Assembly: GCA_041662545.1 (NCBI GenBank)
Contig: JBAZSH010000002.1
Span: 2,239 to 66,238 of the forward strand
DNA length: 64,000 nt
Direction: 5' to 3'
Source: Minisyncoccota bacterium
Lineage (GTDB): Bacteria; Patescibacteriota; Minisyncoccia; Phycocordibacterales; DSPV01
How positions within the stretch are numbered: position 1 is the stretch's first letter; each line of letters starts with the position of its first letter. Positions 24,953 to 42,335 of this stretch are shown here, in pieces. The position numbers were made by a program, and so were the translations under genes. Below the pieces are notes generated by a model that saw only the letters and a program-made list of their open reading frames with translations, ran no database searches and was not told the origin of the DNA.

Positions 24953-26740
24953 ATGTCTGAAGAAAAATTAGAAAAACCAAAGATCAAGGCCGGCTTGTTG
25001 GCGATTTGGAAGTTCGCTCGGCCCTTTAAAAAACAGCTGACGATTTTAATTTTTCTCGGTGTGATTTCGGCTATCGCCAACGGTTCCGTACCTTTTGTCA
25101 CCGGTCGATTTTTTGATGCTCTTATCAACATTTCGCAACCCCAAACCACATCTTTCGGTTCTTTTCCGCTTTGGGGTCTGCTTTTGGCAATTTGGGCAAT
25201 CGTCCAACTTGTTGCCAACAATATTGATTGGATAATGGACTGGCTCCGTCGGAAAATTGACACTCGTATTCATTTCAACATCCAAACCGAGGGCTTCATC
25301 CATTTTTTTAAATTACCTTTATCTTTCCACAAAAATACTCACATTAGTGGCGATTTGCAAAAATTAAGCACTGCTGGTTGGCGCATTTCCTCTATCATGC
25401 AAATCTTAATCAATTTTGCCCCGCAATTTTTAAGTATTATTATTGGCATTGTTTTGGCGGCCAGTATCAATTTTTTGCTGGCGAAAATTCTGGTGCTTGG
25501 TGTGCTGTTGTATATTTGGTTGTTAATAAGAATTCTTTCACCTGCCGCGAAAATTGATTGGGCGGCGCACCGCGCTTGGAATCAAAGTTGGGACGATTCG
25601 GCAGCGGCGGTACTTCAAGTGGAAAGCGTTAAGCAAGCAGCAGCGGAAGAATATGAGGCAAGAAAAGTTCGAGGAGCTTTACTCGGCAAGACTTTTAATT
25701 TGTGGTACAAACTAGAAAAAATTTGGAGTAATGTTGGATTTTTTCAGAGGATGATTGTTTTTTTGACCCAATTGGCAGTTTTCATTTTGTCGGTGCAATT
25801 TGTTGCCAGTGGTAATCTGACTGTTGGTGAATTGGTGGCACTGAACGGCTACGCCATGATGTTTTTTGGGCCATTTGTTTCGCTCGGTTACAGCTGGCAA
25901 ACTATTCAAAACGGTATTAGCTCGGCGGCGCAGGCGGATGAAATTTTTCGCCAACCAATTGAAAATTACGCACCGGTCGGGGCGGTACTGAAAGTGCCGC
26001 TCAAAGGCGAAGTCAGATTTGATAAAGTTGGTTTTCGTTACACTTCTGATCAGCCTCAAGTACTTTCCGATATTTCTTTTTCTGTTCAACCCGGAAACAT
26101 TGTTGCTATGGTCGGCGAGTCGGGCGTCGGCAAAAGCACTGCTATTTCATTGATTTCCGGTTACAATTTTCCCACCGAAGGTGCAGTACTGATAGACGGC
26201 ATTGAAACGCAGAAATTGAATCTTACTAATTTAAGACAACAAATCGCCGTTGTGCCGCAGGAAGTGGCTTTGTTTAATGACACTATTAAAAATAATATCC
26301 GCTATGGCTCGTTCAGCGCGTCGGATGAAAAAATTTTCATTGCAGCGCGAGAAGCCCATATGGAAGAATTTATCAATACTTTACCGGAAAAATACGAAAC
26401 AACAGTGGGGGAAAGAGGTATAAAACTTTCGGTTGGTCAAAAGCAAAGGGTGGCCATTGCTCGGGCGATTTTGCGCGAACCAGCGATTTTGATTTTGGAC
26501 GAACCAACTAGTGCCTTAGATGCCAAAACCGAAAAAATTGTTACCGAGGCGTTGGAGAAATTAATGACTGGCCGGACAACTTTCATTATTGCTCACCGCT
26601 TGTCTACGGTCCGCAAAGCTAACGAAATTTTAGTTTTTGATAAAGGCAAAATTGTGGAGCAGGGCACTCACCAAGAATTAATTGCCAAAACCGGTGGCGT
26701 TTACCACCACCTCTACGAATACCAAATCGGGTTGCATTAA
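24953..26740 (+). CDS. ABC transporter permease/ATPase fusion (type I exporter)
   Basis: 6 TM + Walker A GESGVGKST, signature LSVGQKQRVAIARA, Walker B ILILDEPTSALD. Confidence 0.9.
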   Translation: MSEEKLEKPKIKAGLLAIWKFARPFKKQLTILIFLGVISAIANGSVPFVTGRFFDALINISQPQTTSFGSFPLWGLLLAIWAIVQLVANNIDWIMDWLRRKIDTRIHFNIQTEGFIHFFKLPLSFHKNTHISGDLQKLSTAGWRISSIMQILINFAPQFLSIIIGIVLAASINFLLAKILVLGVLLYIWLLIRILSPAAKIDWAAHRAWNQSWDDSAAAVLQVESVKQAAAEEYEARKVRGALLGKTFNLWYKLEKIWSNVGFFQRMIVFLTQLAVFILSVQFVASGNLTVGELVALNGYAMMFFGPFVSLGYSWQTIQNGISSAAQADEIFRQPIENYAPVGAVLKVPLKGEVRFDKVGFRYTSDQPQVLSDISFSVQPGNIVAMVGESGVGKSTAISLISGYNFPTEGAVLIDGIETQKLNLTNLRQQIAVVPQEVALFNDTIKNNIRYGSFSASDEKIFIAAREAHMEEFINTLPEKYETTVGERGIKLSVGQKQRVAIARAILREPAILILDEPTSALDAKTEKIVTEALEKLMTGRTTFIIAHRLSTVRKANEILVFDKGKIVEQGTHQELIAKTGGVYHHLYEYQIGLH

Positions 26741-26855
26741 GATATGCGGATTTCTGTGCCTTTTGCGGTAGAGAAATGTTATGATAAGAGAGCAAATGGT
26801 CTATTTTCGTCACATAAAGCATCGGGTATGAAGATTTAATTGTTGTTTTAATAAA

Positions 26856-28070
26856 ATGAAAAAAATATCTGAAGCGGTAAATTGGGTCAAAAAACATGGA
26901 CTTTTTCCGAATGTGCCCGTGGTTGAAAGTCCACACGCGCCGGAGGTTATTGTGAATGGCAAAAAAGTTTTAATGTTCGCCACAAACAATTATCTCGGAA
27001 TGATGAAGGACGAAAGGGTAATAGCGGCGGCAAAAGAAGGATTAGAAAAATGGGGTATCGGTAACGGTAGCGCTCGTCTGCTAACCGGCAATTTGTATTT
27101 TCATCAAGAGTTAGAAGACAAAATTGCTAAATTTAAAAACCGACCAGCTGGTTTATCTTTCGTTACCGGTTATATGGCAAATGCTGGTGCTATTCCACCC
27201 CTCGTCAATGTTTTCAAACCATCGCTGATGTCTCTTATTAGAGGTAAGATTCTGAAAGACAAAGAAACCATTGTTTTCAGTGATGAATATAATCACGCCA
27301 GTATTATCGCCGGAGTTCGTTTGAGCAAAGCAGAAAAAGAAATTTACAAACATTGCGATGTCGCCGACCTTGAAGAAAAGTTAAAAAAATATCCGCTCTC
27401 GCAAAGAAAACTTATTGTTTCCGATGGTGTTTTCAGTATGGACGGCGACATCGCTCCCCTGCCACAAATTTTGGAGCTGGCAAAAAAATACAAAGCGATG
27501 ACTTACATAGATGACGCTCACGCCACGGGAATTTTAGGTCCAAACGGCCGGGGTATTGAAGATTATTTTGGCGTTGAGGGTCAGACGGATGTGATAATGG
27601 GGACTTTCACAAAAGCTTTCGGTGGTGTTGGGGGGTTCGTTGTCAGTAGCCAAGATATAATTGACTATCTGAAAATCCGCGCTGATTCGTTCATTTTCAC
27701 CGCGCCAATTGCTCCGCCTATTGTTTACGGACTTATCAAAGCCATTGAGTTGGTAGAAAAAGAAACTTGGCGTCGGGAAAAATTACTTACGAACGCGAAG
27801 TATCTTAGAGAAAAATTAACCGAGTTTGGAATTGATTTCCGAAATTCGCAGACCCAAATCATTCCGATAATGATCGGTGACGAAAAGAAAGCTATGAAAG
27901 CGAGCGAAGAACTTCTCAAAAACGGAATCTTCGTTCCCGCCGCCCGCTGGCCAGCCGTGCCACTCGGCCAAGCCCGCCTCCGCGTGACAGTAACTTCCGA
28001 ACATACACAAGAGCAGATAGACCAATTGGTTATAAATCTGAAAAAAATAAAAGCTAATGTAAAGTTTTAG
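26856..28070 (+). CDS. alpha-oxoamine synthase family PLP enzyme (KBL/BioF/serine palmitoyltransferase-like)
   Basis: class II aminotransferase fold; PLP-Lys in GTFTKAFGG; DDAHATG motif. Confidence 0.75.
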   Translation: MKKISEAVNWVKKHGLFPNVPVVESPHAPEVIVNGKKVLMFATNNYLGMMKDERVIAAAKEGLEKWGIGNGSARLLTGNLYFHQELEDKIAKFKNRPAGLSFVTGYMANAGAIPPLVNVFKPSLMSLIRGKILKDKETIVFSDEYNHASIIAGVRLSKAEKEIYKHCDVADLEEKLKKYPLSQRKLIVSDGVFSMDGDIAPLPQILELAKKYKAMTYIDDAHATGILGPNGRGIEDYFGVEGQTDVIMGTFTKAFGGVGGFVVSSQDIIDYLKIRADSFIFTAPIAPPIVYGLIKAIELVEKETWRREKLLTNAKYLREKLTEFGIDFRNSQTQIIPIMIGDEKKAMKASEELLKNGIFVPAARWPAVPLGQARLRVTVTSEHTQEQIDQLVINLKKIKANVKF

Positions 28071-28225: not shown

Positions 28226-28330
28226 TTGACAAAAATAAGACAATTATTGTAAAGTGATAATCGGCAAAAGAGGCCACGGTGGTTTCTTTTAATCCAAGTT
28301 CTTTAACATTTTTTCAAAGGAGGTGTCGTC
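28226..28330 (+). promoter_or_regulatory. shared promoter + 5' leader element Y (copy 1) ending at ATG of dikinase-like gene
   Basis: ~100 nt near-identical to reverse complement of 33782-33889; contains TTGACA, TGATAAT, hairpin aaagaggccacggtggtttcttt, SD AAAGGAGG. Confidence 0.6.
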
Positions 28331-30913
28331 ATGTTCAAAGTCAATTCGAATGATGTGTGGTCAATTACTAACGAGCGACATAATGCCAGTCCGTTATTGG
28401 GATTTCTTCCCTTGTTTTCTTCGATGACAATCGATATTGAGAAAATCCTTAACGTGGGTCTTAATTTAGAGTTTCTCGTTGAATTTTCCAATCGTCATGT
28501 CAGAATGGCGGCCGTAGCGTCGCATTGGGAAAAAGCAGGTTTGCTCACTGTCGAGAAGCTTAATGCTGTTGAGTTTGTGGACCAAATTACAAATGGTCTC
28601 GCAAATGGAACGGTTAATCTTAATCGTCTAGGCGACTTTCTTTATTTTGCTGATTTTTCAAAGTTTACGGATCACAATCTCGCAAAAGAGATTTCCGTAA
28701 TGGTAGATGTACTCGGTGATTTTATTGTTTTTAACAATATTATCAATACATCCGATTTTTACCATGAAGTATTCACTCGCAAAATATTGGAGTGTTTACG
28801 AACTTCTTTGGGTGTCGCTTCGTCTCTTAAAGCAGAGACAGTGTACTCTGTTTTAACAACTCCCGAGAAGACTGTGTGGATACAGGAAGAGGAGACCAGT
28901 TTGCTTGAAATTCTTACTCTGGTCTGTAAAAATCCTCGCCTTGTGTCTCTTGCGCATGATGAAAAATTAGATGAATTTTTCCATGGCGTCAGCAACATGT
29001 TTGGGTCGGAACTTGAGATGCATGTTAAAAAGTACTTCTGGATTCGGTACGAACAGGAAGGAGAAATTCTTTCTGGCAAACATTTTTGCAATGAACTAGC
29101 CAAAATGTTACGCGACGGAGTTGATGCTACAAACGCTTTAAATTCTGTTAATGAGAGAAGATTGCGTGCTAAAGAGCAATTTGACTCAATTAACTCGACG
29201 GTTGTTTTCAATTCCGAAGCAAAGCACTTACTTGAGGTAGCTCGTAAATTCGTTTACTGGAAACTTCATTTAAGAGAGGTGAAGGTACGATTTTATTGCT
29301 GCGCAGACAAGTTATTGGATGAGGCAGCAAAAAGGCTTAACCTGAACCGCTACCAAGTACGACACTTGACTGTCGAAGAGCTAACTGGTGCATTGTGCGG
29401 GACAATTCAACTGGATACTGTCTCCTTGGATAAGAGAATGGAATACAGCGTATTTTATTTTGCCTCGGGGTGTATTACAGTTTACGAAGGCCAGGATGCT
29501 CGGGATATTTTTAGTGTTGTCAAACAGGAATCTGTTGTTACCACAGATAGTGTTAGTGGTGTTTGTGCCTTTCCTGGTTTAGCGGAAGGCGTGGTAAAAC
29601 AAGTTCTTGATGTGAGTGATGGGGATAATTTTCTTCGAGGAAGTATCCTTGTTGCTTATATGACAGATGTTGGCGTTGTACCTGCTATGAAAAAAGCGAG
29701 TGCGATTGTCACAGATGTTGGCGGAGTTACATGTCACGCCTCAATCATTGCTCGTGAATTTGGTATTCCGTGTCTCATCGGAACAAAAATCGGAACCAAG
29801 GTTCTTCTGGATGGATATACCGCACGAGTGAATGCCACGGAGGGTTTTTCTAAGGTTTTATCCAAAGACGTTAATCCTCAAAAAGCATTAACTGCAAACT
29901 TAGCCGGAGATGAAGACTTGATCGTTTGTAACTTTCAGATTCCCGTGTCTGGTTTTTCAAGAAAAGAAGCCAGTCATGTTCGGAGTCTCCAAAAAACTCT
30001 TTCAAGTGATGTGCAAATCGCAGGAGGAAAAGGTGCTTCATTGGGGCAAATGCTACAATTGAGTTTACCTGTTCCAAAAGGGTTTGTCGTCCTAACATCA
30101 GCTTTCGAAGAGGTTTTCTTTGGAACCGAATACGGCGCGCGCATAAATCAACTTCTTCTTGAAATTCGTGATCAGCGCTCTCTGCGCCGAGTTTCGAAAA
30201 TGATTCAAGAGTTGGTTATCAATGTGGAAATTCCTTTCCAAATTGAACATGACATCAGGGATTCCTTTGCAGATCTGCCCTTTGACTATGTTGCGGTTCG
30301 TAGCTCGGCAACTTCCGAAGACTCGGCCACAGCATCTTGGGCGGGTCAACTTGATAGTTTTCTCAACACCACTCATGACGACTTATTACTTAATATTCGT
30401 CAGTGTTGGGCATCACTCTTTTCGGATCGTGCCATTTCGTATCGTATTCATTGCGATTCGAAAGACATGTCCGTTGCCGTTGTGGTTCAAGGAATGCTTG
30501 ATAGTCGAATTTCGGGAACTGCATTCTCTGTGCATCCGGTTACAGGACAGAGCGATGTCATTCTCATCGAGAGCTGTATTGGTCTTGGTGAGACGCTCGT
30601 TCTCGGAAAAGAGATGCCAACCACATTCCTTGTGAAAAAAGATAGTTTAGCTATCTCTCATAAGGATGTCGGTGAACAGAAAAATGGTTTGAGGCGTTCT
30701 GCCAACGGAAAGGGAAATGAGTTGTTTGTGGTGGATTTTACTATGCAGCCTCTTTCCGATTTGGAAGCAAAAGAAGTAGCTCGACTCGTCATTGATGTTG
30801 AGCAAAAATTTGGCTTCCCTGTTGATGTTGAGTGGGCGTACGAAGGGAATTGTCTTTGCTTACTGCAAAGTCGTCCCATCACTACAACGTCAAAGATTCC
30901 AAAAGTTCAATAA
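28331..30913 (+). CDS. PEP-utilizing-enzyme family dikinase-like protein with permuted domain order (helical N-domain - phospho-His swivel domain - C-terminal ATP-grasp)
   Basis: His domain VTDVGGVTCHASIIAREFGIPCLIGT at ~aa 460-490; PPDK_N-type ATP-grasp at C-terminus (GGKGASLGQM, VAVRSSATSEDSATASWAGQ, VVVQGML, SCIGLGETLV). Confidence 0.7.
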   Translation: MFKVNSNDVWSITNERHNASPLLGFLPLFSSMTIDIEKILNVGLNLEFLVEFSNRHVRMAAVASHWEKAGLLTVEKLNAVEFVDQITNGLANGTVNLNRLGDFLYFADFSKFTDHNLAKEISVMVDVLGDFIVFNNIINTSDFYHEVFTRKILECLRTSLGVASSLKAETVYSVLTTPEKTVWIQEEETSLLEILTLVCKNPRLVSLAHDEKLDEFFHGVSNMFGSELEMHVKKYFWIRYEQEGEILSGKHFCNELAKMLRDGVDATNALNSVNERRLRAKEQFDSINSTVVFNSEAKHLLEVARKFVYWKLHLREVKVRFYCCADKLLDEAAKRLNLNRYQVRHLTVEELTGALCGTIQLDTVSLDKRMEYSVFYFASGCITVYEGQDARDIFSVVKQESVVTTDSVSGVCAFPGLAEGVVKQVLDVSDGDNFLRGSILVAYMTDVGVVPAMKKASAIVTDVGGVTCHASIIAREFGIPCLIGTKIGTKVLLDGYTARVNATEGFSKVLSKDVNPQKALTANLAGDEDLIVCNFQIPVSGFSRKEASHVRSLQKTLSSDVQIAGGKGASLGQMLQLSLPVPKGFVVLTSAFEEVFFGTEYGARINQLLLEIRDQRSLRRVSKMIQELVINVEIPFQIEHDIRDSFADLPFDYVAVRSSATSEDSATASWAGQLDSFLNTTHDDLLLNIRQCWASLFSDRAISYRIHCDSKDMSVAVVVQGMLDSRISGTAFSVHPVTGQSDVILIESCIGLGETLVLGKEMPTTFLVKKDSLAISHKDVGEQKNGLRRSANGKGNELFVVDFTMQPLSDLEAKEVARLVIDVEQKFGFPVDVEWAYEGNCLCLLQSRPITTTSKIPKVQ

Positions 30914-30918: not shown

Positions 30919-30960
30919 AGCCGGTGTATCGCAAAGATACATCGGTTCTTTTTTATTTTT
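30919..30960 (+). terminator. rho-independent terminator
   Basis: ccggtgtatcgcaaagatacatcgg + TTCTTTTTTATTTTTTT. Confidence 0.7.
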
Positions 30961-31034: not shown

Positions 31035-31661
31035 TTGAATATGAATATTTATCTTATTAGACATGGAGAAAGTACTTCTGATATAAAAAATAAGTATGAT
31101 GGTGATTATGACGACCGTTTGACCGAAAGTGGACTCCAAGACGCCAAGATTATTGCTAAAAAACTAAATGGGAGCAACATTGAAGTTGTTTTTACGAGTC
31201 CAAAAATTCGTGCACGCGAAACATCAAAAATTATCAGCGAGGTTCTTGGTTGTAAAACTTCCATAGTGGACGATCTTGCCGAGCAGGATATTTATGGTGC
31301 ATATTTGGAGCTTGGTAAAAATCAGCCGGAAGAAGAATACAGAAGACTTGGTGAGATTCTTGTAAATCGAGACAATGTCGTTGAAGGTTCTGAAACATAC
31401 AAAAATTTTAAAGAACGCGTAATAAAATGTTTTTTTGACATTACGCATCAATCGTTTGAGAATATTGCAATTGTGACGCATGGCGGATCGATTCGTTGCA
31501 TTTTTCGAGAAATACTCACATTGGGTGAATTCAAGGAGATTGGTAATGGCGCAATAATCGAACTCAAAAAAGAAGGTTCTGCGTTGTCGGTCGTGAATAT
31601 GGATCACGCCATTTTAAAGCAGAGCGTTTTGACTGGTATCGGCCAAGATGTTAAAAATTGA
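31035..31661 (+). CDS. histidine phosphatase family (phosphoglycerate mutase-like)
   Basis: LIRHGES (RHG) motif, second His in VTHGGSIR. Confidence 0.8.
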   Translation: MNMNIYLIRHGESTSDIKNKYDGDYDDRLTESGLQDAKIIAKKLNGSNIEVVFTSPKIRARETSKIISEVLGCKTSIVDDLAEQDIYGAYLELGKNQPEEEYRRLGEILVNRDNVVEGSETYKNFKERVIKCFFDITHQSFENIAIVTHGGSIRCIFREILTLGEFKEIGNGAIIELKKEGSALSVVNMDHAILKQSVLTGIGQDVKN

Positions 31662-31760
31662 AAGACTTTTTATAAAAGAAAAAACCGATGCATCTTTCGA
31701 CACATCGGTTTAAATTATCATCTACGATAGATATCGTGAGTGATTATTTTTAACAAAAAC

Positions 31761-32807
31761 TCAAAGTGGAACGTAATCTTCTTGAAACCCAAACCTTCTT
31801 GGTCCAAGCAATTCGATTCCTTTGTCTGTTTTCCATATCGGAAGCGCTGGCGTTCCAAATACTAGGACATTGATCCCCAATTGCAGGGAGCTATTGGAAA
31901 TGGGCAAGAGTGAGTCGGAATCTATGATCGATATCGAATCGGGTACGCTACAAAGGCATTTTTCACCACAAAACAAAATGATGTTTTCATTTTTGTAATG
32001 TATTGTGAACTTCTTGCCCTCAAATGCTCCCGATCCGCTTATTTGAGTTACCCCAGATAGAAATCCAGGTTCATCTTTAAACGCGTTGCTTCCAACTTTC
32101 CCCGTGACCAGTAATCTTGAATTACATTTTTCACCGAGAGCATTGATAAGCTCCGCTTCACTTTTGCAAGTGAGGATTGCGTCGCCTGTCAAAATCGACC
32201 GAGACATTGTTCCTGGTGGCAGTATCAATTGAGCATCAGCATTGCGAATGGGTCTGCTTGCTATGTAGCAATATCCTCCGGAAGCAACCGCAAAAGCTCG
32301 GTAAACACTTTCTAAGATGGCCCCGTTTTTTGAATCCTTCACTATAAGCACATCTGATTGATCATTAACAACAATTACAGGGGTTGAATTGATATTCAAA
32401 ATCCCGTATATGTCCATATCTTCTTCGGGGACTGCTCTGCCGCCAACCATATCTGTGTCTACAAGTGATATGTTTTTCTTGCTCGCTGTCCATACAGCGT
32501 TTATTTCAGAACCTATTTCACCGGGTATTACACCTTTAATGCTCACTCCCAGATGCTGTTCTAAACATTCTATCGCTAATAGGAAAGTTTTGTACTCTTT
32601 CTTGCTGTGGCCACTTGCTCCTATTGCATAGACCGTACAAAGCCAGTCATCGTCGGAAAGCTCGTCTAAAGATACAAGGCTTACATTTTCAACATTACTC
32701 GAGTTCATTAGTTCGATGCTGTTTTTGTAAGGAACACCTCCCCCACAAGAGAAAAATGATGAGCCAATGAAAAGACCCTTGTAATTACTTCTACTTAGCG
32801 TGATCAT
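31761..32807 (-). CDS. hypothetical protein, possibly DUF917-like
   Basis: 348 aa, Gly-rich SCGGGVPY near N-terminus; overlaps start/stop with GNAT gene; family assignment uncertain. Confidence 0.35.
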   Translation of the reverse strand: MITLSRSNYKGLFIGSSFFSCGGGVPYKNSIELMNSSNVENVSLVSLDELSDDDWLCTVYAIGASGHSKKEYKTFLLAIECLEQHLGVSIKGVIPGEIGSEINAVWTASKKNISLVDTDMVGGRAVPEEDMDIYGILNINSTPVIVVNDQSDVLIVKDSKNGAILESVYRAFAVASGGYCYIASRPIRNADAQLILPPGTMSRSILTGDAILTCKSEAELINALGEKCNSRLLVTGKVGSNAFKDEPGFLSGVTQISGSGAFEGKKFTIHYKNENIILFCGEKCLCSVPDSISIIDSDSLLPISNSSLQLGINVLVFGTPALPIWKTDKGIELLGPRRFGFQEDYVPL

Positions 32808-33778
32808 GATTTCTCCTTGTCGTTGGATGTTTCCACTGACTTCAAATTCATAACGAAAACCCTTCGTTTTTTGAAGCCCAGTGTATCGAGTGACGCCATC
32901 AAATCAAGTGAGACATTTCTTTCCGTAAAAGGATGAATTGTCACACAAGAAATATCTTGCATTGCCAAATATTTTGCCGAAGACAATATGAGCGACCTGA
33001 TAACCGTAGATGCTTCTTTTGAACGATCAATGAAGATGCGTTCAAGGGTTGCCTTACTTGTTGGCTTATGAGCAGATGCTGTTATCAAACCAACAAGAGA
33101 GTCATTTAAAAAAGCACCGTGGATTACTTGCGCCAAATCAAGACTTGGCGTGTCTTGGTGATTCAAATCAGAGATTAGTATGCTTAAAAAGTTGGCATAC
33201 ATTGCTTGGCCTGTATCGCTTATGCCGATCTTCTTGATTTGAAATCCGCCTTCTTCTGATTCACAATTTACGAGCTTAGGCTGATTTACGTACCACTGCG
33301 TCAAAATTCCTTCAGAATAATGATGTTGGGTTAGTAAACTAGACATTGCCGTGTTTGTGGTGTGACAAAATGAGCGAAGTGTTTTTATGCCAACTCTTGT
33401 TGCGCGATTTTCGAATTCGTTGAGTAATTTACTGGCAATACCTTGTTTTCGGAAGCCTTCCTTAACGTGAATATTTTCCAAGGTAGCAATTCGTTCTTTG
33501 TCAAAGATGGCTAATAAAAATCCTACAATATCCTTTTTTTGATTTATAGCCACCAGCATTGAGCCATCTTTTTCCGTGGCCCAATTTTGCAACGCTTCTT
33601 CTGACCAGAAAATGATTTCATAGCCAGTCGCAAATTCCTGCGTGTTTTGTCCAGCTTGCATTACGTATGCAAGATGTTTTTCGGTGCAAAAATCCTCAAT
33701 AGTTACACTATTAAGGGAAGTATAATCAGTACTCATTTTGATGGCCTCGTTTCCACAGTTTGGATTGATTTCAGACAT
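32804..33778 (-). CDS. GNAT N-acetyltransferase with extra N- and C-terminal regions
   Basis: acetyl-CoA binding motif region (HVKEGFRKQGIASKLL) in the middle of a 324-aa protein. Confidence 0.6.
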   Translation of the reverse strand: MSEINPNCGNEAIKMSTDYTSLNSVTIEDFCTEKHLAYVMQAGQNTQEFATGYEIIFWSEEALQNWATEKDGSMLVAINQKKDIVGFLLAIFDKERIATLENIHVKEGFRKQGIASKLLNEFENRATRVGIKTLRSFCHTTNTAMSSLLTQHHYSEGILTQWYVNQPKLVNCESEEGGFQIKKIGISDTGQAMYANFLSILISDLNHQDTPSLDLAQVIHGAFLNDSLVGLITASAHKPTSKATLERIFIDRSKEASTVIRSLILSSAKYLAMQDISCVTIHPFTERNVSLDLMASLDTLGFKKRRVFVMNLKSVETSNDKEKS

Positions 33779-34213: not shown

Positions 34214-35290
34214 ATGACAAAAGAAGCCGTTATTGAAATACTCGGTAAGCTCCAGGTGCTTAAAAAGAAAACCGGTATAGAAATTGTTGATACCCATGTA
34301 CACCCAGGAGATGTTATGGGTGTGGTTCATTATTTAGAAACAAAATTCAGCGATAATCACTTATCGAAAGATTATCTAGAATCGGGAATTTTAGAGAAAT
34401 TTAATTACAGCAAGTTTGAGAAATTTGGGTCGAGGATAGTGTTCAAAATTTTTCCGGAATTTGTTAACAAAACTGTTCAGCAAACATACGGGACATACAA
34501 TAATACTGACCTTTCGAATGAAATGATAATTTCGCTGGTAGACAAAAGTGTTCTTCTTCCTATTGAACCGTGGCTACCAACAAAAATAGTGGGTGATACA
34601 TATAAAAATAAAAAGAATTTTATTATTCTAGGTTCAATTGATGTCTGCGGAATAGAGAAAGGAAATATTGAAAGGATAATCATTTCTTATATTCAAGATT
34701 ACAAAATAGTTGGCCTCAAGTTTCATCCAAACTTACAAAATTTTAAACCTCAGCCCAAAGATAACTCGCTGGAAATTGCAGACAAGCTGAGGGTAATATA
34801 CGACATCGCACAAAAACACAAACTTTATTTACTTTTTCATGGCGGTATATCTAATTTTACTAAACACATTAATCTAAAATACCACGATGCTTCAAGCCGA
34901 AGCCGCACTAACGCGTTCCTTAAGAATTTTTGCTCGGCAAATGGTCAAAGCGAATTATTTGAGAATTGGAATATGCCAATAATTATTGCTCACCTCGGGC
35001 ATTACGGGATGATCGATGTTGATTATGGTTTACTTAAACTTATAACTAAACGATTTAACAATGTGTGCTTTGATACTTCAGGAATATCGTCAAATGTTAT
35101 CGCAAAAGCACTTCAAGTTGTTCCGAGCGAGCGTATAGTTTTTGGTTCCGATGCAGCATATAATAGAATGGCTTACAATCTTGCTTTTTTGTATAATGCA
35201 ACTATGATAGCAAATAACGGCGAGGCAAAAACTGAAATGTTAGTTAATGTGTTGAGTGGAAATTTTTATAACAAAATCTTAAAACATTGA
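34214..35290 (+). CDS. amidohydrolase-2 family metal-dependent hydrolase (TIM barrel)
   Basis: VDTHVHPGD metal-binding HxH, later HLGHYG and D in FGSD. Confidence 0.65.
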   Translation: MTKEAVIEILGKLQVLKKKTGIEIVDTHVHPGDVMGVVHYLETKFSDNHLSKDYLESGILEKFNYSKFEKFGSRIVFKIFPEFVNKTVQQTYGTYNNTDLSNEMIISLVDKSVLLPIEPWLPTKIVGDTYKNKKNFIILGSIDVCGIEKGNIERIIISYIQDYKIVGLKFHPNLQNFKPQPKDNSLEIADKLRVIYDIAQKHKLYLLFHGGISNFTKHINLKYHDASSRSRTNAFLKNFCSANGQSELFENWNMPIIIAHLGHYGMIDVDYGLLKLITKRFNNVCFDTSGISSNVIAKALQVVPSERIVFGSDAAYNRMAYNLAFLYNATMIANNGEAKTEMLVNVLSGNFYNKILKH

Positions 35291-36879
35291 ATATGGCTTG
35301 GCTTATTTTACTTTCTGGAATTTTAAACTTGTTTTTAGGTCTTATTGTTTGGTTAAGAGATCTAAAAAACAGGTTAAATTTAGGTTTTGGTATATTTAGT
35401 TTAAGCACCGTTGTTTTAATACTATTTGATTTCTTTTTTCGATTTAATCCAACAGTCTTTATTTTGAAAAGTAGTTACGCTTTTGCAGCACTAGTTCCAA
35501 TTACGGCCTTAATTTGGATTTTGGAAATGTGCCACATTGACGCGTCTAGATTCTCACCTTTACGCAAGATTCTGATATTTCTGCCTGGCCTAGTTTTCTT
35601 TGTGCTAACTTATATCGGCAACTTAATTGTTGTTCAAGTCCATTCTCTCACCTTGCTTGGTTATATAGGAAAACTCGGTCCTCTTTTTTCGTTATACTCA
35701 CTTTACTTCTTTGTTTATATTCTTGCTTTTATTATCCTTTTATATCGCACCCAACGAAATACCACTGATAGAATATATAAAATTCAGATTAGATTTGTAC
35801 TTACTGGTGTAATACTCTATGGTCTTACAGCTGTCACATCAAGTCTAATCCTCCCCAAATTTTTTGGAGTTTTTGATTTCACACTTCTTGACGCTCCAAG
35901 TTTAATTTTCTTTGTCGGTTTTACAGCATATGCAATTCTTAAATTACATTTATTTAACATAAAAGTAATTGCCACCGAGTTACTAGTTTTTGCACTTTCC
36001 AGTTTTAGTTTGATAAGGACAATAGTATCTGATCAATTGAATGACCAAATAATAAATGGGGGCATCTTTCTGTGTATTTTAATCGTTGGTGTTTTCCTTA
36101 TCCGGAGTGTTATGCAAGAAGTCGAACAACGCGAGAAGATTGAGAAATTGGCAAAACAATTGGAGAAAGCGAACGAGCGGTTGAAGGAATTAGATAAACT
36201 GAAGACAGAATTTATTTCTTTTGCCACTCATCAATTGCGGGCGCCGATTACGGCGATTAAGGGTTACACCTCGGAAATTCTTCAGGGCGATTTTGGGCAA
36301 TTGCCGGAAAACTTGAGAGCACCGACTGAAGTGATTATGCAGTCCAGCTCATCATTGGCGATTTTGGTGGACGATTATTTGAATGTTTCGCGCATTGAGC
36401 AGGGCAAGATGAAATATGAATTTTCTGATTTCAATCTTGCTGATTTGGTAAATGAAGTGGCGAATGAACAACGACCGAGCGTAGAAAAGAAAGGACTGAA
36501 ATTGGAATTCGCCTCACCGGCTGACAAGGTGATGATTCATGCCGACCGTGGCAAGATTAAGCAGGTGATTCTGAACTTGCTGGATAATTCAATGAAATAC
36601 ACACCGGCGGGGCAAATTACCATAACTTTAACAAAACAAGACAGCAAAGCGCGGCTTTCCATCAAGGACACTGGCGCCGGTATCAAACCAGAAACAATGT
36701 CTCATTTGTTCCAAAAATTCTCTCGCGCTTCCGACGCTTCTAAATATAATTTGTTAGGCACTGGTCTCGGGCTTTATTTGGCCAGTGAACTTTTGAAAGC
36801 TCATCACGGTCGCATTTGGGCCGAATCCGAAGGCGAAAGCAAGGGCTCAACTTTCTTTGTGGACCTACCCGCCATTTAG
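35287..36879 (+). CDS. sensor histidine kinase with 7-TM N-terminal domain (no adjacent response regulator)
   Basis: HisKA FISFATHQLRAPITAIKGY, HATPase (DTGAGI, GTGLGLYLA); coiled-coil linker. Confidence 0.85.
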   Translation: MNMAWLILLSGILNLFLGLIVWLRDLKNRLNLGFGIFSLSTVVLILFDFFFRFNPTVFILKSSYAFAALVPITALIWILEMCHIDASRFSPLRKILIFLPGLVFFVLTYIGNLIVVQVHSLTLLGYIGKLGPLFSLYSLYFFVYILAFIILLYRTQRNTTDRIYKIQIRFVLTGVILYGLTAVTSSLILPKFFGVFDFTLLDAPSLIFFVGFTAYAILKLHLFNIKVIATELLVFALSSFSLIRTIVSDQLNDQIINGGIFLCILIVGVFLIRSVMQEVEQREKIEKLAKQLEKANERLKELDKLKTEFISFATHQLRAPITAIKGYTSEILQGDFGQLPENLRAPTEVIMQSSSSLAILVDDYLNVSRIEQGKMKYEFSDFNLADLVNEVANEQRPSVEKKGLKLEFASPADKVMIHADRGKIKQVILNLLDNSMKYTPAGQITITLTKQDSKARLSIKDTGAGIKPETMSHLFQKFSRASDASKYNLLGTGLGLYLASELLKAHHGRIWAESEGESKGSTFFVDLPAI

Positions 36880-36940
36880 GCGGGGTTGTTGGTGAAATAA
36901 AATTAGGCCGAATTTTTAAACTCTAAAATCCATCACGGGT

Positions 36941-36988
36941 TTTTTAAAGTTTTTAATTGGTAAGTTTTTCGATATGGGTATTATACAC
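36941..36988 (+). promoter_or_regulatory. shared promoter-like element X (copy 2)
   Basis: see 28152-28199. Confidence 0.5.
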
Positions 36989-37100
36989 TAGAAATCGCTT
37001 GTAAATCGATAGGCACTCTTGTTTATAATGTTCGGGGCGTTGGACTCAAGTATTGCCACCAAAGAAAAATTGATGTATAGTAACGGTAAGTTTTGTTATC

Positions 37101-38665
37101 ATGTATAATGACAAACAAAAAATAATTAATGACGAAACTCTTCCAAGGTCTATAAGATCTGTGGTGCGCATGTATCCGTCCAATCAAGTCAACAGACTGT
37201 TTTATGGAGGATTGCCCCACCTTGGGAATGCTCTTTTAGGCTCTTGGAGTTCTCCTGAAATACAGGAAGCGGCCAGAGCCTATGAGGACTACAGTCTTTC
37301 TTCAAATCTTCTTATAAAAGGTTTTAAAAGTCCCACTTTAGATAAAGTAAGATTGGGTGGTGGAAGTCCCGCCCGTTTTAAACCTTTTGATAAATGTCTA
37401 ACTAACATAAAGTATTCTTTGGAAAATAGAGTACTTTCCGATTATCCGCTGGCCGCAGGCGATAATGCCGACAAGGTGCCTATCATCGAATACTTTAAGA
37501 AGCTCTATTCTTTGAAAATAAATGAAAATATATTATTTTCACTCATTCCAGCACCCAAGCGTTCACGCTGGTTATGGAGGCGATATTGGACTATGGAGAT
37601 GTGGTCTTAATGACAGCCCCGAACTACGGTCTTTTTTCGTTTATGCCGGAAAGAGCAGGGGGGCGGGTTAGGCTTTTGCAACTGACAAGTCTTGACGGTT
37701 GGAAGGTTGATCCAAAAAAACTCAAGCGACTTATTGTTGAAATCAATAACGAGCTTGAATCAGATTACGATACAAATCGCGGAAAATATATTTTCAGGCG
37801 GTCCGATTTGCCGCCAAGAGTTTCTGTTTTTGTAAATTTAAATCCACACAATCCGACAGGTATGGTTTACAGTCAGATGGACAAATCGTTATTGTTGGAG
37901 ATTTCCAATGTCTGCAAAGAAACAGGCGTATTTATCGTTGACGATTTGGCTTATGCGGGCCTAGAATATGATAGAAATAACCCCGCGTTGCCTATATGTA
38001 GTTTAAGTGGCCATTTTGATAATACAATAACGTTGTATTCGCTTTCCAAGTCTTACGGCTTAGCCGGCATAAGGTCGGGGATGGTTGTCGCTAACGAAAT
38101 AATCAGCTCTTTGATACGCGATGAAATATTTCAAGTTTCCGACTCGCTGTCTTTGGTGCAATCGTCTGCCATGAGTGCGATTTTTTCATCAGATGGGACC
38201 CTGGCGAAAGAAAGAGAGGACTATCTCGCCCATGTTACAAAGGAGTATTATCAAAGATACATTTTTGTAAAAGCTATTATTGTGGGGGCTGATAACCTCA
38301 AAAAGCAAGAAAAAAAGCTGCTCGATAAAATTCTTAATGATAATAGGCTTAATATTAATGGTGCCGAGTCTATGAACGGCATCAAGGATGTGAGCATAGC
38401 ACTTGAACCGGAGTCGGGGTTTTTTGTAATATTGGATTTAAGCAAGTTACTCGGAAAATCTTACAAAGGATTTAGAATCATTGATGACAAAACCATGTTG
38501 CAGTTCTTATACACTTCAGGCAACATCAAAGTTTTGCCCGGCAAGGCATTTTGTTGGAGTGATCGTGAGCAGCTCGTCGTAAGAGCAACTACCGCATTAG
38601 GATATGCTGAATTGTTAAAATCCTTTTTGAGACTTAAGGCATCTATAGAAGAACTACTAGTATGA
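37101..38665 (+). pseudogene. class I/II aminotransferase interrupted by a -1 frameshift near 37523-37535 (or sequencing error)
   Basis: ORF 37101-37610 and ORF 37574-38665 are parts of one protein; downstream frame extends back to 37526 as KYIIFTHSSTQAFTLVMEAILDYGDVV; NPHNPTG and SLSKSYGLAGIRSG (PLP-Lys) present. Confidence 0.6.
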
Positions 38666-39546
38666 GAATATATATTGCTTCTTCGGATAAGTACATCGGG
38701 AAAATCCAAGAGGATATTTATATGCGCGACGCATATAGAAATGCCGGATTGTTCTCCGAGATTGTCACGCTGAAAGATATTGCGAATATTTCAGAATCTT
38801 CTGATGTGGTTATTTTAAAAAGCATATGGGGGTACCACATATGTTACAAAGAATTTATCGAGGAAGTATCACATCTCAAAAAAAGGGGGGTTAAATTGGT
38901 AAATGATTATAATTTTATTTTTTGGAACATCAATAAGTGTAAATACTTGAACGAAATAAATCACATGAATGTGGTTCCAACAGCATTCTTGCAATTAAAA
39001 GGCGCCGACACAGTGGCAGAAATCAGCGATGTAATTTCAGAAATTAGCAGGAGGTTTAATGCGGATACACTGGTTATAAAGCCTTGCATATCGGAAAGTG
39101 GTTATTTGACTTTCAGGTATGATACAAGTAAAAATAATGAAACGGTAATTGCGGCATTGAAAAATAATAAACAGCTTAATTTTATGGTGCAGCCTTATAG
39201 ACCTGCTGTTTCAGAAGGCGAGATATCAGTCATTACGATTAACGGTGTCTCCCTTTATGGGATTAAGAGGTTTTCTGGAATTTTCAATGATAAATTGAAT
39301 CCGACATATATAAAGTTGGCGAATGTGCCAGATGCAATACAAAGAGAAATTGCCGCATTAAAAAACTTTTTCTTGAAAAAGTTCGGGGCATCGCCTAATA
39401 TATGTAGGGTTGACTTTTTAAAGGCTGATACTGGTTATGAGATCTTAGAAGTTGAGTTAATAGACCCTGATTTATTTTTTAGATTCATACCAGAAAACAT
39501 GAAAAAGAAAGTAGTCTCTATTCTTTGCAAGTCATTAACAATATAA
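38662..39546 (+). CDS. ATP-grasp fold ligase (RimK/glutathione-synthetase-like)
   Basis: LVIKPCISESGY and CRVDFLKADTGYEILEVELIDPDL ATP-grasp C-terminal motifs. Confidence 0.6.
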   Translation: MRIYIASSDKYIGKIQEDIYMRDAYRNAGLFSEIVTLKDIANISESSDVVILKSIWGYHICYKEFIEEVSHLKKRGVKLVNDYNFIFWNINKCKYLNEINHMNVVPTAFLQLKGADTVAEISDVISEISRRFNADTLVIKPCISESGYLTFRYDTSKNNETVIAALKNNKQLNFMVQPYRPAVSEGEISVITINGVSLYGIKRFSGIFNDKLNPTYIKLANVPDAIQREIAALKNFFLKKFGASPNICRVDFLKADTGYEILEVELIDPDLFFRFIPENMKKKVVSILCKSLTI

Positions 39547-39563
39547 ATAAATTCTTACTTATT

Positions 39564-40013
39564 ATGTACAGAAAAGGCGTATCCGCTCTTATAATTAATA
39601 GCAACGACGAATTTCTTTTGGTAAATTTAGAATCTTTTGAAGATAAGTATTTTGCAATTCCTGGTGGTGGGGTTGAGCAGGGAGAAACTTTAGAAAACGC
39701 AGTATATCGAGAGATACATGAAGAGTTGGGTATAGGAAGAAAATCTCTTAAATTTGTGGGTAAAAGTCAGGATCCGGTTAAGTTCAAATTTAAGGTAATC
39801 AAAATGACTCGTGATGGTAAGAACTATGAAGGATCAGAGAGATACTTTTTTGGCTTCCGTTTTCTGGGGAATGACGATGAAATACATCCCAAAGAAGGTG
39901 AGGTAAGAGCTTATAAGTGGATATCATTTGTGCAATTAAAAGATTATTTGCTTTTTGATGATCAACTAAAAGATACTCAGGAAAAAATAAAAGAAATTTT
40001 TACCGATTTTTAA
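39564..40013 (+). CDS. Nudix hydrolase
   Basis: Nudix box GGGVEQGETLENAVYREIHEELG. Confidence 0.85.
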   Translation: MYRKGVSALIINSNDEFLLVNLESFEDKYFAIPGGGVEQGETLENAVYREIHEELGIGRKSLKFVGKSQDPVKFKFKVIKMTRDGKNYEGSERYFFGFRFLGNDDEIHPKEGEVRAYKWISFVQLKDYLLFDDQLKDTQEKIKEIFTDF

Positions 40014-40037
40014 AAATATTGATACTCATTCATTTTT

Positions 40038-40907
40038 TTAATTGTTAGGTAAATAACAAGCAAGAGTTTGCATGACTTCCAATGCTGGAGGAAACTTTTT
40101 GGAGTTAAGCAAAGTCTTAAGGTAATTAATACGAGCAAAAAGTGCAATACTTTCTTTCTCTGTAAGAAGGTCTTCCTTTTCGAGTGCTATTTTTAAGCTT
40201 TGTATTGATTGCTCGGAACCAATAAAGTCATTAAATTTTTCTGCGACTTTTCGTGGAATTTCTTCTCCGCATAACCATCCAGCTTTTCCGATATCCGTAA
40301 GAATGGAAAAGTTACGTAATCGAACATCTCCAAAAGACAATCCATTGTCAGTCGCATAAATTTTCTCTTGGGATTCCAATTGCCCATCTTCTTTTAGCTG
40401 AAATATTTCGTTGAAAAGCGCATTACTTGAATGCCTGTCTGTCTCGTGAATGAGAATATCGAATAAAGCTAATGTAGCCATCATCTCTATTCTTGATTGC
40501 GATTTACTATTTTTTTTGTTCGGTTTTTTATAAGGAGACCATTCACTAAGAGTCTTAGCGTTTGGAATGAATAGCTGAATACTACCCAAGTCGTATTCGT
40601 TTTCTAAATCCCTAATCACCGTAATAGGTACAATATCTAAGCCTAGGTGCTGAGAGACAAGATAAGCTGCCCTCTCGTGTTTATAATAAGTGCCCGGTTC
40701 AATTTTTTCCCAGCCAGGGATAACTTGTTCTAAACTGCGTGGTTTGTAAATCGCTAATCTATTTTTAATTCCAACAACAAAAACACTTTCGTGCCCAAAA
40801 AGTTTTTCTGGTCGCTTAGTTATTTCTCCAGCCAGAAGTTCTTCTTCTGATAAGGAAATTCCTTCAATTGGTGCAATGTTATCTTGTTTATGAAATCCTT
40901 CTTGCAT
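40038..40907 (-). CDS. PI3K/PI4K-like kinase catalytic-domain protein
   Basis: catalytic loop HETDRHSSNALF (DRHxxN) and metal-binding DNG(LSFG) resembling DRHxxN...DFG of PI3/PI4 kinases. Confidence 0.45.
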   Translation of the reverse strand: MQEGFHKQDNIAPIEGISLSEEELLAGEITKRPEKLFGHESVFVVGIKNRLAIYKPRSLEQVIPGWEKIEPGTYYKHERAAYLVSQHLGLDIVPITVIRDLENEYDLGSIQLFIPNAKTLSEWSPYKKPNKKNSKSQSRIEMMATLALFDILIHETDRHSSNALFNEIFQLKEDGQLESQEKIYATDNGLSFGDVRLRNFSILTDIGKAGWLCGEEIPRKVAEKFNDFIGSEQSIQSLKIALEKEDLLTEKESIALFARINYLKTLLNSKKFPPALEVMQTLACYLPNN

Positions 40908-41004
40908 TATTTAGTTATTGACGATCTAAATATTGTATTATAATATGCATATGGTTGGGAATGTAGCAAATTATGCACATTGTAAAAAGAAAGGTCTATG
41001 TTTT

Positions 41005-42249
41005 ATGAAAAGAAAGTTTGATATCAACAAACCGACACTACTTTTTGTGGAAGAATACGAAAACACACTTTCAAGGAGTGTAACATCAAACCAGACCATT
41101 AATCTGATGTTACTCAGATTCAAGCATAGCATGTTTTTTAGCCAGGCACATCTCGATGCCACCGCTGGTATTCCTTGTTTTGTTTTTGACAAAGAAGAAC
41201 CTGTTAAACATATGGTTGAAAAATTCAACAGATTCTGCGCCGAAAATGAAATTGTGGTTAACTACTTCTACAACGATTCTGAATACAATCAGGAAAATGT
41301 TCAGAGATTCGCCTCTTTGCTCAAACTTCCCGGGGCATTAGACGAATATCAAGCTCGTTGTGTGAGGGACAAGGCGGCGATGAAAGACAAATTACGCGAG
41401 CTTGGTTATCGCACTATGCTCTATCGGGAGCTGTCTTCCATTGAAGACGCACTCGAATTCGCAGAAGGACTAGGCGGCTTTCCGTTCATCGTAAAATGGC
41501 GAAGGGGACTATCCTCGAAGGAGGTGTATAAGATTGAGAATAGGAAGCAGTTGGAAGATCTTCAGCTTGACTATTCCACTCAACGGTTCATTGCAGAAAC
41601 ATACTGCCCGTATTTAATCTGGTGCTTTGACTCGCTTGTGCAAGACGGTAAGGTGGTCGGCACTTTTCTGACGTGGCTTCCTTATACCAATCTTAGCTTC
41701 GCCGAGAAAAAAGAAAAATTCGCTCAAATCACGGTAAAGGAGTGTCCAAAGGATATCAAGTTCGATGGGGGAAAAATCACTCAGAACCTCGTCGGCGAGC
41801 TTGGTTTGAAAAACGGTTACATTCAGATCGAAATCTTCGTTGATCCTAATGGACAACCTACGATTTGTGAATTTGCATGGCGAACCGCCGGAGAGCATAT
41901 GTTATCAAACCAGAGTATTGCCTTCGATGTCGACGTTTGTTCTTTGCTGGTTGACATCATGGTCGGCAGAAAAATCCAGCCTATTCCAACGACAGGACAG
42001 CGATGTGTCGGCGACATGTTCTTGCCTTTGGCCGACGGGGTTGTTGCGAAGATTTCTTCGTACGACGATCTTAAAGGACTCGATGGAGTGATTGGCGGCA
42101 ATATCAACTTCAAAGAAGGGGATGTCATCCGATCAAAAAGGCAATACACAAGTTGCGCTGGCTGGGTTCAAGTCACCGGACGGACCGCAGACGAGGTTTT
42201 AAGCAAGATGCTTAAAGTGTACGAGCGGTTTGAAATTGTGACAAGTTAA
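41005..42249 (+). CDS. ATP-grasp fold ligase
   Basis: FPFIVKWRRGLSSKEVYKIEN...YIQIEIFVDPNG...EFAWRTAG; start chosen at internal ATG (MKRKF). Confidence 0.6.
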   Translation: MKRKFDINKPTLLFVEEYENTLSRSVTSNQTINLMLLRFKHSMFFSQAHLDATAGIPCFVFDKEEPVKHMVEKFNRFCAENEIVVNYFYNDSEYNQENVQRFASLLKLPGALDEYQARCVRDKAAMKDKLRELGYRTMLYRELSSIEDALEFAEGLGGFPFIVKWRRGLSSKEVYKIENRKQLEDLQLDYSTQRFIAETYCPYLIWCFDSLVQDGKVVGTFLTWLPYTNLSFAEKKEKFAQITVKECPKDIKFDGGKITQNLVGELGLKNGYIQIEIFVDPNGQPTICEFAWRTAGEHMLSNQSIAFDVDVCSLLVDIMVGRKIQPIPTTGQRCVGDMFLPLADGVVAKISSYDDLKGLDGVIGGNINFKEGDVIRSKRQYTSCAGWVQVTGRTADEVLSKMLKVYERFEIVTS

Positions 42250-42262
42250 AACCAACTTCGCT

Positions 42263-42296
42263 CCGACGCATCACGCGTTGGGGCGAAATTTTTTCT
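42263..42296 (+). terminator. rho-independent terminator
   Basis: cgctccgacgcatcacgcgttggggcg + AAATTTTTTC. Confidence 0.6.
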
Positions 42297-42303
42297 ACAA
42301 CAA

Positions 42304-42329: not shown

Positions 42330-42335
42330 CAATGG

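Follow-up and report, generated by a model that had tools for sequence, protein, structure and literature searches.

An 860-residue protein of a Minisyncoccota bacterium is probably a cyclically permuted small-molecule dikinase encoded in a mobile four-gene module

A 64,000-nucleotide stretch of a Minisyncoccota genome (assembly GCA_041662545.1, contig JBAZSH010000002.1, positions 2,239 to 66,238), here called the window, carries on its forward strand a gene (positions 28331 to 30913, with an ATG start) for an 860-residue protein in which the domains of a phosphoenolpyruvate (PEP)-utilizing enzyme stand in an unusual order. The locus raises two questions: whether this arrangement represents a genuine and working enzyme, and to what kind of pathway such an enzyme would belong. 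We consider it quite probable that the protein is a single-chain, cyclically permuted, and active member of the RPH/HpeHI/PpsAB small-molecule water dikinases (RPH, rifampin phosphotransferase) and that it is encoded in a four-gene mobile module.

Pfam placed the PEP-utilizers domain, the phosphohistidine swivel, at residues 436 to 505 (PF00391; E = 7e-20) and the PPDK_N ATP-grasp domain (PF01326) at residues 562 to 856 (E = 5.2e-75), and it gave no match for residues 1 to 435, even at an E value of ≤1. Together with homologs, NCBIfam matches, and AlphaFold2 (AF2) models, this delineates a mainly helical acceptor (substrate)-binding domain (residues 1 to 400; positions 28331 to 29530), the swivel (residues 406 to 512; 29546 to 29866), a linker (residues 513 to 544; 29867 to 29962), and a PPDK_N-type ATP-grasp nucleotide-binding domain (residues 545 to 856; 29963 to 30898), all on the plus strand. 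A swivel that precedes a C-terminal ATP-grasp is what the original prediction, made from the DNA letters, had claimed, and the motifs that it quoted are present: TCHASII is encoded at 29729 to 29749, with the codon of His-469 at 29735 to 29737 (translation checked), and VAVRSSATSEDS corresponds to residues 654 to 665 in the ATP-grasp domain. The gene that it had set beside this one as a canonical PEP synthase (14985 to 17405) is indeed such an enzyme, with the order PPDK_N, swivel, and PEP-utilizers_C and 1145 bits against an NCBIfam PpsA cutoff of 598. The 860-residue protein itself scored under the curated cutoff of every NCBIfam model that it matched.

An assembly or gene-calling artefact is ruled out. 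A search for orthologs with the same permutation yielded 21 clusters of full-length homologs (37 to 90% identity, at least 98% coverage), the aligned members of which are collinear across the linker, and the fusion is no artefact because these homologs come from independent assemblies. The closest relative, from Magasanikbacterium, is 90% identical. In the full-length AF2 model (mean predicted local distance difference test score, pLDDT, of 85; predicted template-modeling score, pTM, of 0.60), the linker has pLDDT values of 37 to 66, with residues 516 to 530 below 50, and its alignment columns are variable, implying that the segment 513 to 544 is a flexible tether joining the swivel to the grasp.

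The first ~400 residues had been described as a ~440-residue helical domain of unknown function. They are mainly helical, but they match the rifampin-binding domain of RPH and the substrate domain of the HpeH type; the region is a divergent homolog of both and no new domain. A phmmer search with residues 1 to 405 alone retrieved 484 cluster representatives, one of which, P0192 (829 residues), has the canonical RPH order, with the grasp at residues 5 to 313, the substrate domain at 467 to 710, and the swivel at 725 to 827. Residues 467 to 827 of P0192 are collinear with residues 151 to 510 of the 860-residue protein (30% identity, E = 2e-49), and its N-terminal grasp matches the C-terminal grasp of the latter (43% identity, E = 2e-85). 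Since both halves find their counterparts in P0192, the two proteins are circular permutants of each other.

Comparison with solved structures led to the same family. The family profile searched against the PDB aligned to residues 614 to 866 of RPH-Lm, reaching ~150 residues upstream of the swivel, inside the rifampin-binding domain. Besides, the AF2 model of residues 1 to 515 (pLDDT 91.4, pTM 0.86) had RPH-Lm as all of its best six Foldseek matches (E down to 8.4e-14, template-modeling score of 0.60), with all others at a score of ≤0.20; a similar pattern of structural matches between HpeH and RPH has been published (PMC12167813). A check for an N-terminal ATP-grasp found none, the region matching the rifampin-binding domain instead. 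The protein thus carries a large helical RPH-type substrate domain directly N-terminal to the swivel, as RPH-type small-molecule dikinases do, although this domain is only ~17% identical to its RPH counterpart. The Pfam order and the Foldseek matches to RPH accord with the earlier description of a small-molecule dikinase with rearranged domains, the substrate-binding one at the N terminus.

Judging from the conserved residues of both half-reactions, the protein appears catalytically intact. In the alignment to RPH-Lm (native numbering), Lys-567 corresponds to K22, Arg-657 to R117, Ser-676 to T136, Glu-834 to E297, Gln-846 and Arg-848 to Q309 and R311, and His-469 to H825. In RPH, K22, R117, and T136 position ATP, and R666, E667, and K670 perform the second transfer and persist also where a clade acts on different substrates (PMC4844700). 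The nucleotide and phosphate ligands of the PF01326 ATP-grasp (RPH K22, R117, T136, and E297) thus have their counterparts in the 860-residue protein. The swivel histidine lies in TDVGGVTCH, which fits the PF00391 motif T/S-x-x-G-G-x-x-x-H and, as GGVTCH, is of the PpsA type, with a threonine (Thr-467) at position -2; an accurate alignment, proposed earlier as a check, showed this histidine to be invariant (23/23 and 24/24 aligned sequences). As the putative second-step motif we identified Arg-315-Glu-316-Val-317-Lys-318 (REVK; positions 29273 to 29284, plus strand), the candidate counterpart of RPH R666/E667/K670. Arg-315 and Glu-316 are invariant and Lys-318 is at least 90% conserved in the family, and the segment, HLREVKVRF, sits in a helix aligned with YREYPKY of RPH, where hhalign puts RE on RE and HMMER shifts the motif by 4 residues, or one helical turn.

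The reaction is probably ATP + X + H2O -> AMP + Pi + X-P, by analogy with these enzymes. ATP would bind to the C-terminal ATP-grasp via Lys-567, Arg-657, Ser-676, and Glu-834, and His-469 of the swivel would attack the beta-phosphate, with release of AMP and loss of the gamma-phosphate as Pi. The swivel, held by a short connection on its N side and by the ~32-residue flexible linker on its C side, would then ferry the phosphate to the N-terminal domain, where Arg-315, Glu-316, and Lys-318 would position it so that a hydroxyl or comparable nucleophile of the bound small molecule can accept it. Because HpeH and HpeI do not associate stably (PMC12167813), a covalent tether would have the effect of increasing the local grasp concentration. 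The N-terminal domain also holds many invariant arginine, glutamate, and aromatic residues among its conserved positions (Arg-16, Glu-51, Tyr-235, Trp-237, Tyr-240, Glu-241, Gln-242, Arg-315, Glu-316, Arg-320, Tyr-322, Arg-335, Arg-344, Glu-350, and Arg-369), which leads us to speculate that the acceptor may be polar or anionic and not a hydrophobic macrocycle.

How did the rotated order arise? Most of the 484 homologs of the N-terminal domain are ~480 to 530 residues long and consist of the substrate domain and swivel only; the split forms that we examined lie on archaeal (DPANN-like) contigs, and no PPDK_N/ATP-grasp gene was found within 6 to 8 kb of them (13 to 17 kb fetched at every split-form locus). 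In a neighbor-joining tree over the substrate-domain-plus-swivel region (capped Kimura-corrected distances, 200 bootstraps), the permuted fusions grouped as a single clade, recovered in 195/200 bootstraps and embedded in the split forms, with P0192 and the multi-module proteins branching outside it. Because the permuted clade is monophyletic and so nested, the tree implies, as the simplest history, a single fusion event that joined a grasp gene to the 3' end of a split "H-type" gene for ~500 residues. Recent capture of the C-terminal grasp from the genome's own ppsA was considered and rejected, since the grasp is closer to that of P0192 (43% identity) than to ppsA (35%).

Multi-module relatives, taken here as predicted single genes, extend this picture. 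P0138 (2309 residues) has four swivels around one ATP-grasp and includes the segment substrate-binding domain-swivel (1165 to 1504), grasp (1525 to 1799), and substrate-binding domain-swivel (1903 to 2308), which resembles a textbook intermediate of circular permutation by duplication. P0240 is a grasp-first protein with an extra substrate-binding domain-swivel module, and double or triple modules of this kind occur among P0124, P0151, P0134, P0136, P0152, and P0180. With P0138 and such proteins at hand, both domain orders can be derived from natural intermediates. They also suggest that several acceptor modules can share a single grasp, and, to judge from tandem arrays of substrate-domain-plus-swivel genes and from multi-module proteins of 1,300 to 2,300 residues, the DPANN/CPR (Candidate Phyla Radiation) branch may comprise modular phosphorylation systems with one ATP-grasp and many acceptor modules.

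Some loci of these relatives showed further features. An archaeal-type contig (L001:5248-13440; also L003 and L022) carries five tandem swivel paralogs without an ATP-grasp, the first of which has a substrate domain of the 860-residue type; genes for a HAD hydrolase and an EamA/flavokinase are scattered among them, and upstream of the array lies an LMW-PTP-like gene whose product has a CX5R motif. Genes for ~240 to 273 residues stand beside split or divergent relatives in L001, L003, L016, and L018; when these were compared as a possible single phosphatase family, an LMW-PTP match was obtained in L001 only (8.6e-8), and pairwise BLAST among these neighbors was insignificant except for a weak L001/L003 match. 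In L016 (81-857), the gene is for 258 residues, has no detectable family, and lies upstream of and overlaps that of P0024, the most divergent fused ortholog; in L018 (8498-9319), a gene for 273 residues, without a precomputed Pfam match, starts 8 bp downstream of P0192. Neither product has detectable similarity to the histidine phosphatase of the window or to the other. Furthermore, P0128 and other relatives of ~600 residues have an IclR-type helix-turn-helix N-terminal to the substrate domain and swivel, which hints that some relatives are transcription regulators coupled to phosphotransfer.

The second question concerns the partners. The original prediction had pointed to an adjacent histidine phosphatase, and this gene is present (31035 to 31661, plus strand; 208 residues; His_Phos_1, E = 9.7e-30) but turned out to be part of a larger module. 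The phosphatase is of the CobC/PspA/PhoE small-molecule type: its best NCBIfam match, alpha-ribazole phosphatase CobC, is near full length, followed by PspA and dPGM types, whereas the SixA model matches only residues 3 to 82 and, with 44.7 bits, stays under its cutoff of 74.5. Convergent with it lies a gene for an S-Me-THD-like/DUF917 protein of 348 residues (31761 to 32807, minus strand; PF06032 and PF20906), a putative hydantoinase-like hydrolase with a distant match to NCBIfam thiohydantoin desulfurase (95 bits against a cutoff of 440). The fourth gene, for a GNAT acetyltransferase of 324 residues (32804 to 33778, minus strand; Acetyltransf_1 at residues 59 to 148, E = 1e-12), about twice the usual GNAT length, overlaps the start of the S-Me-THD gene by 4 bp, both being on the strand opposite to the dikinase gene.

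We assessed the conservation of these partners by tblastn at the fused-dikinase loci of the six lineages that had enough flank. S-Me-THD orthologs were found in 6/6 lineages (55 to 78% identity), and His_Phos and GNAT orthologs in five each (49 to 78% and 30 to 63% identity, respectively). The arrangement varies by lineage and is divergent, convergent, or a single co-directional operon (L009 and L021). No orthologs of the three partners were found beside split or canonical-order relatives. Terminator-like hairpins stand directly 3' of the dikinase stop codon (30919 to 30947, plus strand; 12-bp stem followed by a T run) and between the convergent His_Phos_1 and S-Me-THD genes (31682 to 31711, minus strand). 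The two bracket His_Phos_1 and are related in sequence (CCGrTGTrTCG(C)AAAGATrCATCGG, then a T run); they are perhaps copies of a short palindromic repeat. A possible promoter-like site (TTGACA, 18 nucleotides, TAAAGT; 28226 to 28255, plus strand; 10/12 consensus matches) precedes the dikinase gene, but a consensus scan found such sites in this region to be no more numerous than in shuffled sequences.

The fused family is rare: a search of 185,579 species-representative genomes found 4 loci, in "Candidatus Accumulibacter jenkinsii," a Buchananbacterium, a metagenome-assembled genome of Polyangiaceae, and a Woesearchaeote (the last a split form). The module is horizontally mobile across CPR bacteria, Accumulibacter (a betaproteobacterium), and Polyangiaceae (myxobacteria), and it often resides in mobile or defence islands. 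In "Ca. Accumulibacter jenkinsii" UW20 (L019:1902-9626, on a 659-kb contig), it forms an island of 43% GC between flanks of ~57% GC, adjoins DDE transposase, RadC, and TraG/TrwB-like genes, and encodes a dikinase 71 to 83% identical to that of the window across its three regions; this copy looks like a recent cross-phylum transfer. A chimeric contig or assembly artefact was rejected as its source, because sequence of higher GC content lies on either side of the island. In the Polyangiaceae copy (L021:9422-11132), the dikinase is split in the swivel, just after CHASII, by a ~1.7-kb insertion sequence-like element with a transposase-like open reading frame of 486 residues on the opposite strand, and the rest of the operon is intact and co-directional (grasp, GNAT, S-Me-THD, and His_Phos). 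The module adjoins a serine recombinase in L011, and in L014 it stands among a serine recombinase, UmuCD-like genes, a DpnII restriction-modification system, a Shedu SduA_C gene, KilA-N, and Bro-N; taken together, L011, L012, and L014 have recombinases, transposases, and TraG/TrwB-like genes beside the module. In the window, the module is surrounded by ordinary genes (SecA and sensor kinases) and by small-molecule enzymes that are not conserved with it elsewhere.

Several observations weigh against the reading of an active dikinase in a conserved module. The N-domain profile compared by hhalign with the central domains of eight RPH-like proteins gave no significant match (E = 0.07, probability of <1%) and serves at most as a hint for the RE motif, so that the homology of the first ~150 residues is argued for by the predicted fold only. 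The register of the R-E-x-K motif relative to RPH R666/E667 would depend on the alignment, HMMER and hhalign differing by four residues, and the moderate pTM of the full-length model (0.60) leaves it uncertain how the substrate domain packs against the grasp. As for the module, one lineage showed no His_Phos, its contig ending 345 bp past S-Me-THD, another lacks a GNAT ortholog, and the four genes of the window make up at least three transcription units instead of one operon.

What could a dikinase achieve together with a phosphatase, an acetyltransferase, and a hydrolase? The cycle of phosphorylation and dephosphorylation that the original prediction held plausible has precedents in AcvAB/AcvF and phenylphosphate synthase/carboxylase, whose operons combine a dikinase with a phosphatase and use the phosphate for transient activation (bioRxiv 10.1101/2022.04.28.489975). 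By this analogy, and because the phosphatase here is of a small-molecule type, we infer that a phosphorylate-then-dephosphorylate pathway operates at this locus: most likely, the phosphate would serve as a transient activating or handle group on a polar metabolite or xenobiotic and be removed later by the phosphatase. We favor the view that the acceptor molecule is also acetylated and hydrolysed by the GNAT and DUF917 partners. A wider extension, in which the four genes are a self-contained mobile cassette that phosphorylates, acetylates, ring-opens, and dephosphorylates a novel class of small molecules exchanged between ultra-small CPR/DPANN symbionts and their hosts, such as a toxin, an antibiotic, or a signalling metabolite, is a tentative idea that we rate as possible but rather improbable; if true, it would extend the RPH superfamily to a new class of substrates and to a new route of resistance or defence.

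Alternatively, the cassette might serve resistance or detoxification, spreading by protecting its host, with the dikinase phosphorylating an antibiotic or toxin as RPH does rifampin and the GNAT acting as a second inactivator. The closest solved relative is an antibiotic-resistance kinase, the GNAT weakly matches AAC(6') and ArsN1 resistance acetyltransferases, and distant RPH clades retain the Arg-Glu-Lys motif and yet use other substrates (PMC4844700); the occurrence of the module in CPR bacteria, in the low-GC island of Accumulibacter, and in Polyangiaceae, and the recombinases, transposases, and TraG/TrwB-like genes beside it in L011, L012, and L014, fit such a role as well. However, the co-conserved phosphatase would reverse any inactivation by phosphorylation, a DUF917 hydrolase is atypical as a resistance partner, and the neighbors in the window are ordinary chromosomal genes. 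Rifamycins in particular are an unlikely substrate, given a score of 280 bits against the RPH cutoff of 999 and an alignment of only 17% identity. On balance we regard a resistance cassette as unlikely.

The phosphatase bears on another alternative, namely, that it acts not on the product but, like SixA, on the enzyme itself, which it would reset or regulate by dephosphorylating phospho-His-469 or the PpsA-type regulatory Thr-467. GGVTCH has its threonine at the -2 position as in PpsA and PPDK, where this residue is a regulatory phosphorylation site (PMC12167813), and the subthreshold SixA match points the same way. That match is confined, however, to the N-terminal part of the phosphatase, its full-length best matches are of the CobC, PspA, and dPGM types, and in the characterized operons of dikinase and phosphatase it is the product that is dephosphorylated (bioRxiv 10.1101/2022.04.28.489975), which makes a regulatory phosphatase distinctly unlikely.

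The surroundings of the module in the window suggest a further possibility. The segments 24953 to 28070 and 34214 to 43960 are rich in small-molecule enzymes: an MsbA-like ABC exporter, Amidohydro_2, a partial class I/II aminotransferase match, ATP-grasp proteins like glutathione synthetase and L-amino-acid ligase, a NUDIX hydrolase, an APH-type kinase, and a BioF/Kbl-type alpha-oxoamine synthase whose 424.5 bits lie just under the bioF cutoff of 426.45. The stretch may be a separate biosynthetic cluster; by tblastn, none of the genes for the ABC exporter, BioF-like protein, and Amidohydro_2 turned up near the dikinase elsewhere. If the enzyme activates its substrate for condensation, as PigC, RedH, and HapC do, the phosphate on a carbonyl or amide oxygen would be a leaving group, and the enzyme would amount to an ATP-dependent ligase or cyclase of a small biosynthetic pathway. 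The three RPH-type domains recur in PigC and RedH, which are among the NCBIfam matches (247 to 252 bits), and the biosynthesis-like enzymes between 24.9 and 44 kb (BioF/Kbl-like, exporter, amidohydrolase, two ATP-grasp ligases, NUDIX, and APH kinase) would suit such a role. But only GNAT, S-Me-THD, and His_Phos accompany the dikinase elsewhere, and a dedicated phosphatase points to a stable phospho-intermediate and not to an instantly displaced phosphate; we therefore consider condensation very doubtful.

A role in defence against phages or mobile elements, in which the dikinase would modify a nucleotide or a phage component, is even harder to uphold. Its mobility across phyla and the setting in L014, between the serine recombinase, UmuCD-like genes, DpnII system, Shedu SduA_C gene, KilA-N, and Bro-N, speak for it. 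A PADLOC-DB scan of all four module proteins gave no matches, however; no typical effector, such as a nuclease or an NTPase sensor, is conserved alongside it; and its neighbors in the window and in Buchananbacteria are ordinary, so that such a role is improbable. Finally, a noncatalytic sensor or regulator derived from a dikinase, in the manner of the IclR-type relatives such as P0128 or of a PPS-like regulator listed in the literature (PMC10948481), is scarcely credible, as the residues for both half-reactions are conserved family-wide and Pfam found no DNA-binding domain in the 860-residue protein.

The preferred reading is that of a transient phosphate on a small molecule. The four genes, conserved as a module that moves among CPR bacteria, a betaproteobacterium, and a myxobacterium, point to an uncharacterized small-molecule pathway. 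Automated pipelines name such genes "PEP synthase" or "rifampin phosphotransferase," and the 860-residue protein is neither; the rph-like genes counted when CPR genomes are surveyed for their resistomes (PMC8651080) may or may not include this family. More broadly, the RPH/HpeHI superfamily is architecturally plastic in prokaryotes, with split, grasp-first, grasp-last, and multi-module forms in the collections that we searched.

Among known systems, RPH (RPH-Lm; PDB 5FBS, 5FBT, and 5HV1), the PRK06241 family, and PigC/RedH have the same three domains as the 860-residue protein. With RPH it also shares the catalytic residues (K22, R117, T136, E297, H825, and, putatively, a motif of the R666/E667/K670 type), and two-step swivelling chemistry is expected in both. 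The original prediction had the RPH swivel following an N-terminal ATP-grasp; the grasp is N-terminal, but the substrate domain intervenes, the order being grasp, substrate domain, and swivel (PMC4844700), whereas here it is substrate domain, swivel, and grasp. Since the RPH swivel follows the substrate domain, the change amounts to a simple rotation of the grasp from the N to the C terminus. As a consequence of order, the swivel is attached at one end in RPH and tethered on both sides here, as in PpsA/PPDK and GWD, and the grasp, unlike that of RPH, is joined solely by the ~32-residue flexible linker. The swivel motif also differs (TCH of the PpsA type, against MTH in RPH), and the NCBIfam rifamycin phosphotransferase models NF041857 and NF000283 gave 280.5 bits against a cutoff of 999 and 189 against 1700. 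With a score so far below the RPH equivalog cutoff, the protein, as far as its sequence tells, is not a rifamycin kinase.

PpsA and PPDK have a homologous swivel and ATP-grasp, and the swivel is closest in sequence to that of PpsA, TCH motif included. They differ in domain order and, in PpsA, by a PEP/pyruvate-binding TIM barrel, the corresponding PF02896 being absent from the 860-residue protein in Pfam. The PEP synthase models gave 346.5 bits against 739.75 (TIGR01418) and 354.7 against 598 (NF005057), and the protein is not a PEP synthase.

The two-component dikinases HpeH/HpeI, PpsA/PpsB (phenylphosphate synthase), and CreHI read H and then I, the same order as here (PMC12167813). These systems and AcvAB consist of two polypeptides encoded by adjacent genes, whereas the 860-residue family is a single open reading frame in the window and in all full-length clusters. 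Their partners are carboxylases, compared with a GNAT and a DUF917 protein here, and the present locus has no aromatic-catabolism context. The PRK08296 models, "hypothetical proteins" of ~570 to 630 residues with a C-terminal swivel and the PpsA/HpeH layout, match just the swivel region (residues 406 to 510); because nothing beyond the swivel is matched, the substrate domain is assigned to another branch, one centred on DPANN/CPR.

The plant and algal starch dikinases GWD1 (glucan, water dikinase) and PWD (phosphoglucan, water dikinase) agree with the 860-residue protein in linear order and in dikinase chemistry. Potato GWD1 consists of a central acceptor domain, a His domain that pivots between sites, and a C-terminal ATP domain of the PPDK_N type (PMC13553574). 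Of the N-terminal starch-binding modules CBM45 and CBM20, Pfam found neither in the 860-residue protein, no GWD was among its sequence homologs, and the GWD central domain was not among the fold matches listed, in libraries from which 9HA9 and 9QVI are possibly absent. Because this order is already established for potato GWD1, the arrangement is not of a new kind, but in prokaryotes the grasp-last fusion is a new variant, of which the literature searched contained no description. Being compact, bacterial, and confidently modelled, such a grasp-last protein is a tractable system for the effect of tethering the swivel on two sides, and the 860-residue protein is a possible structural analogue for GWD.

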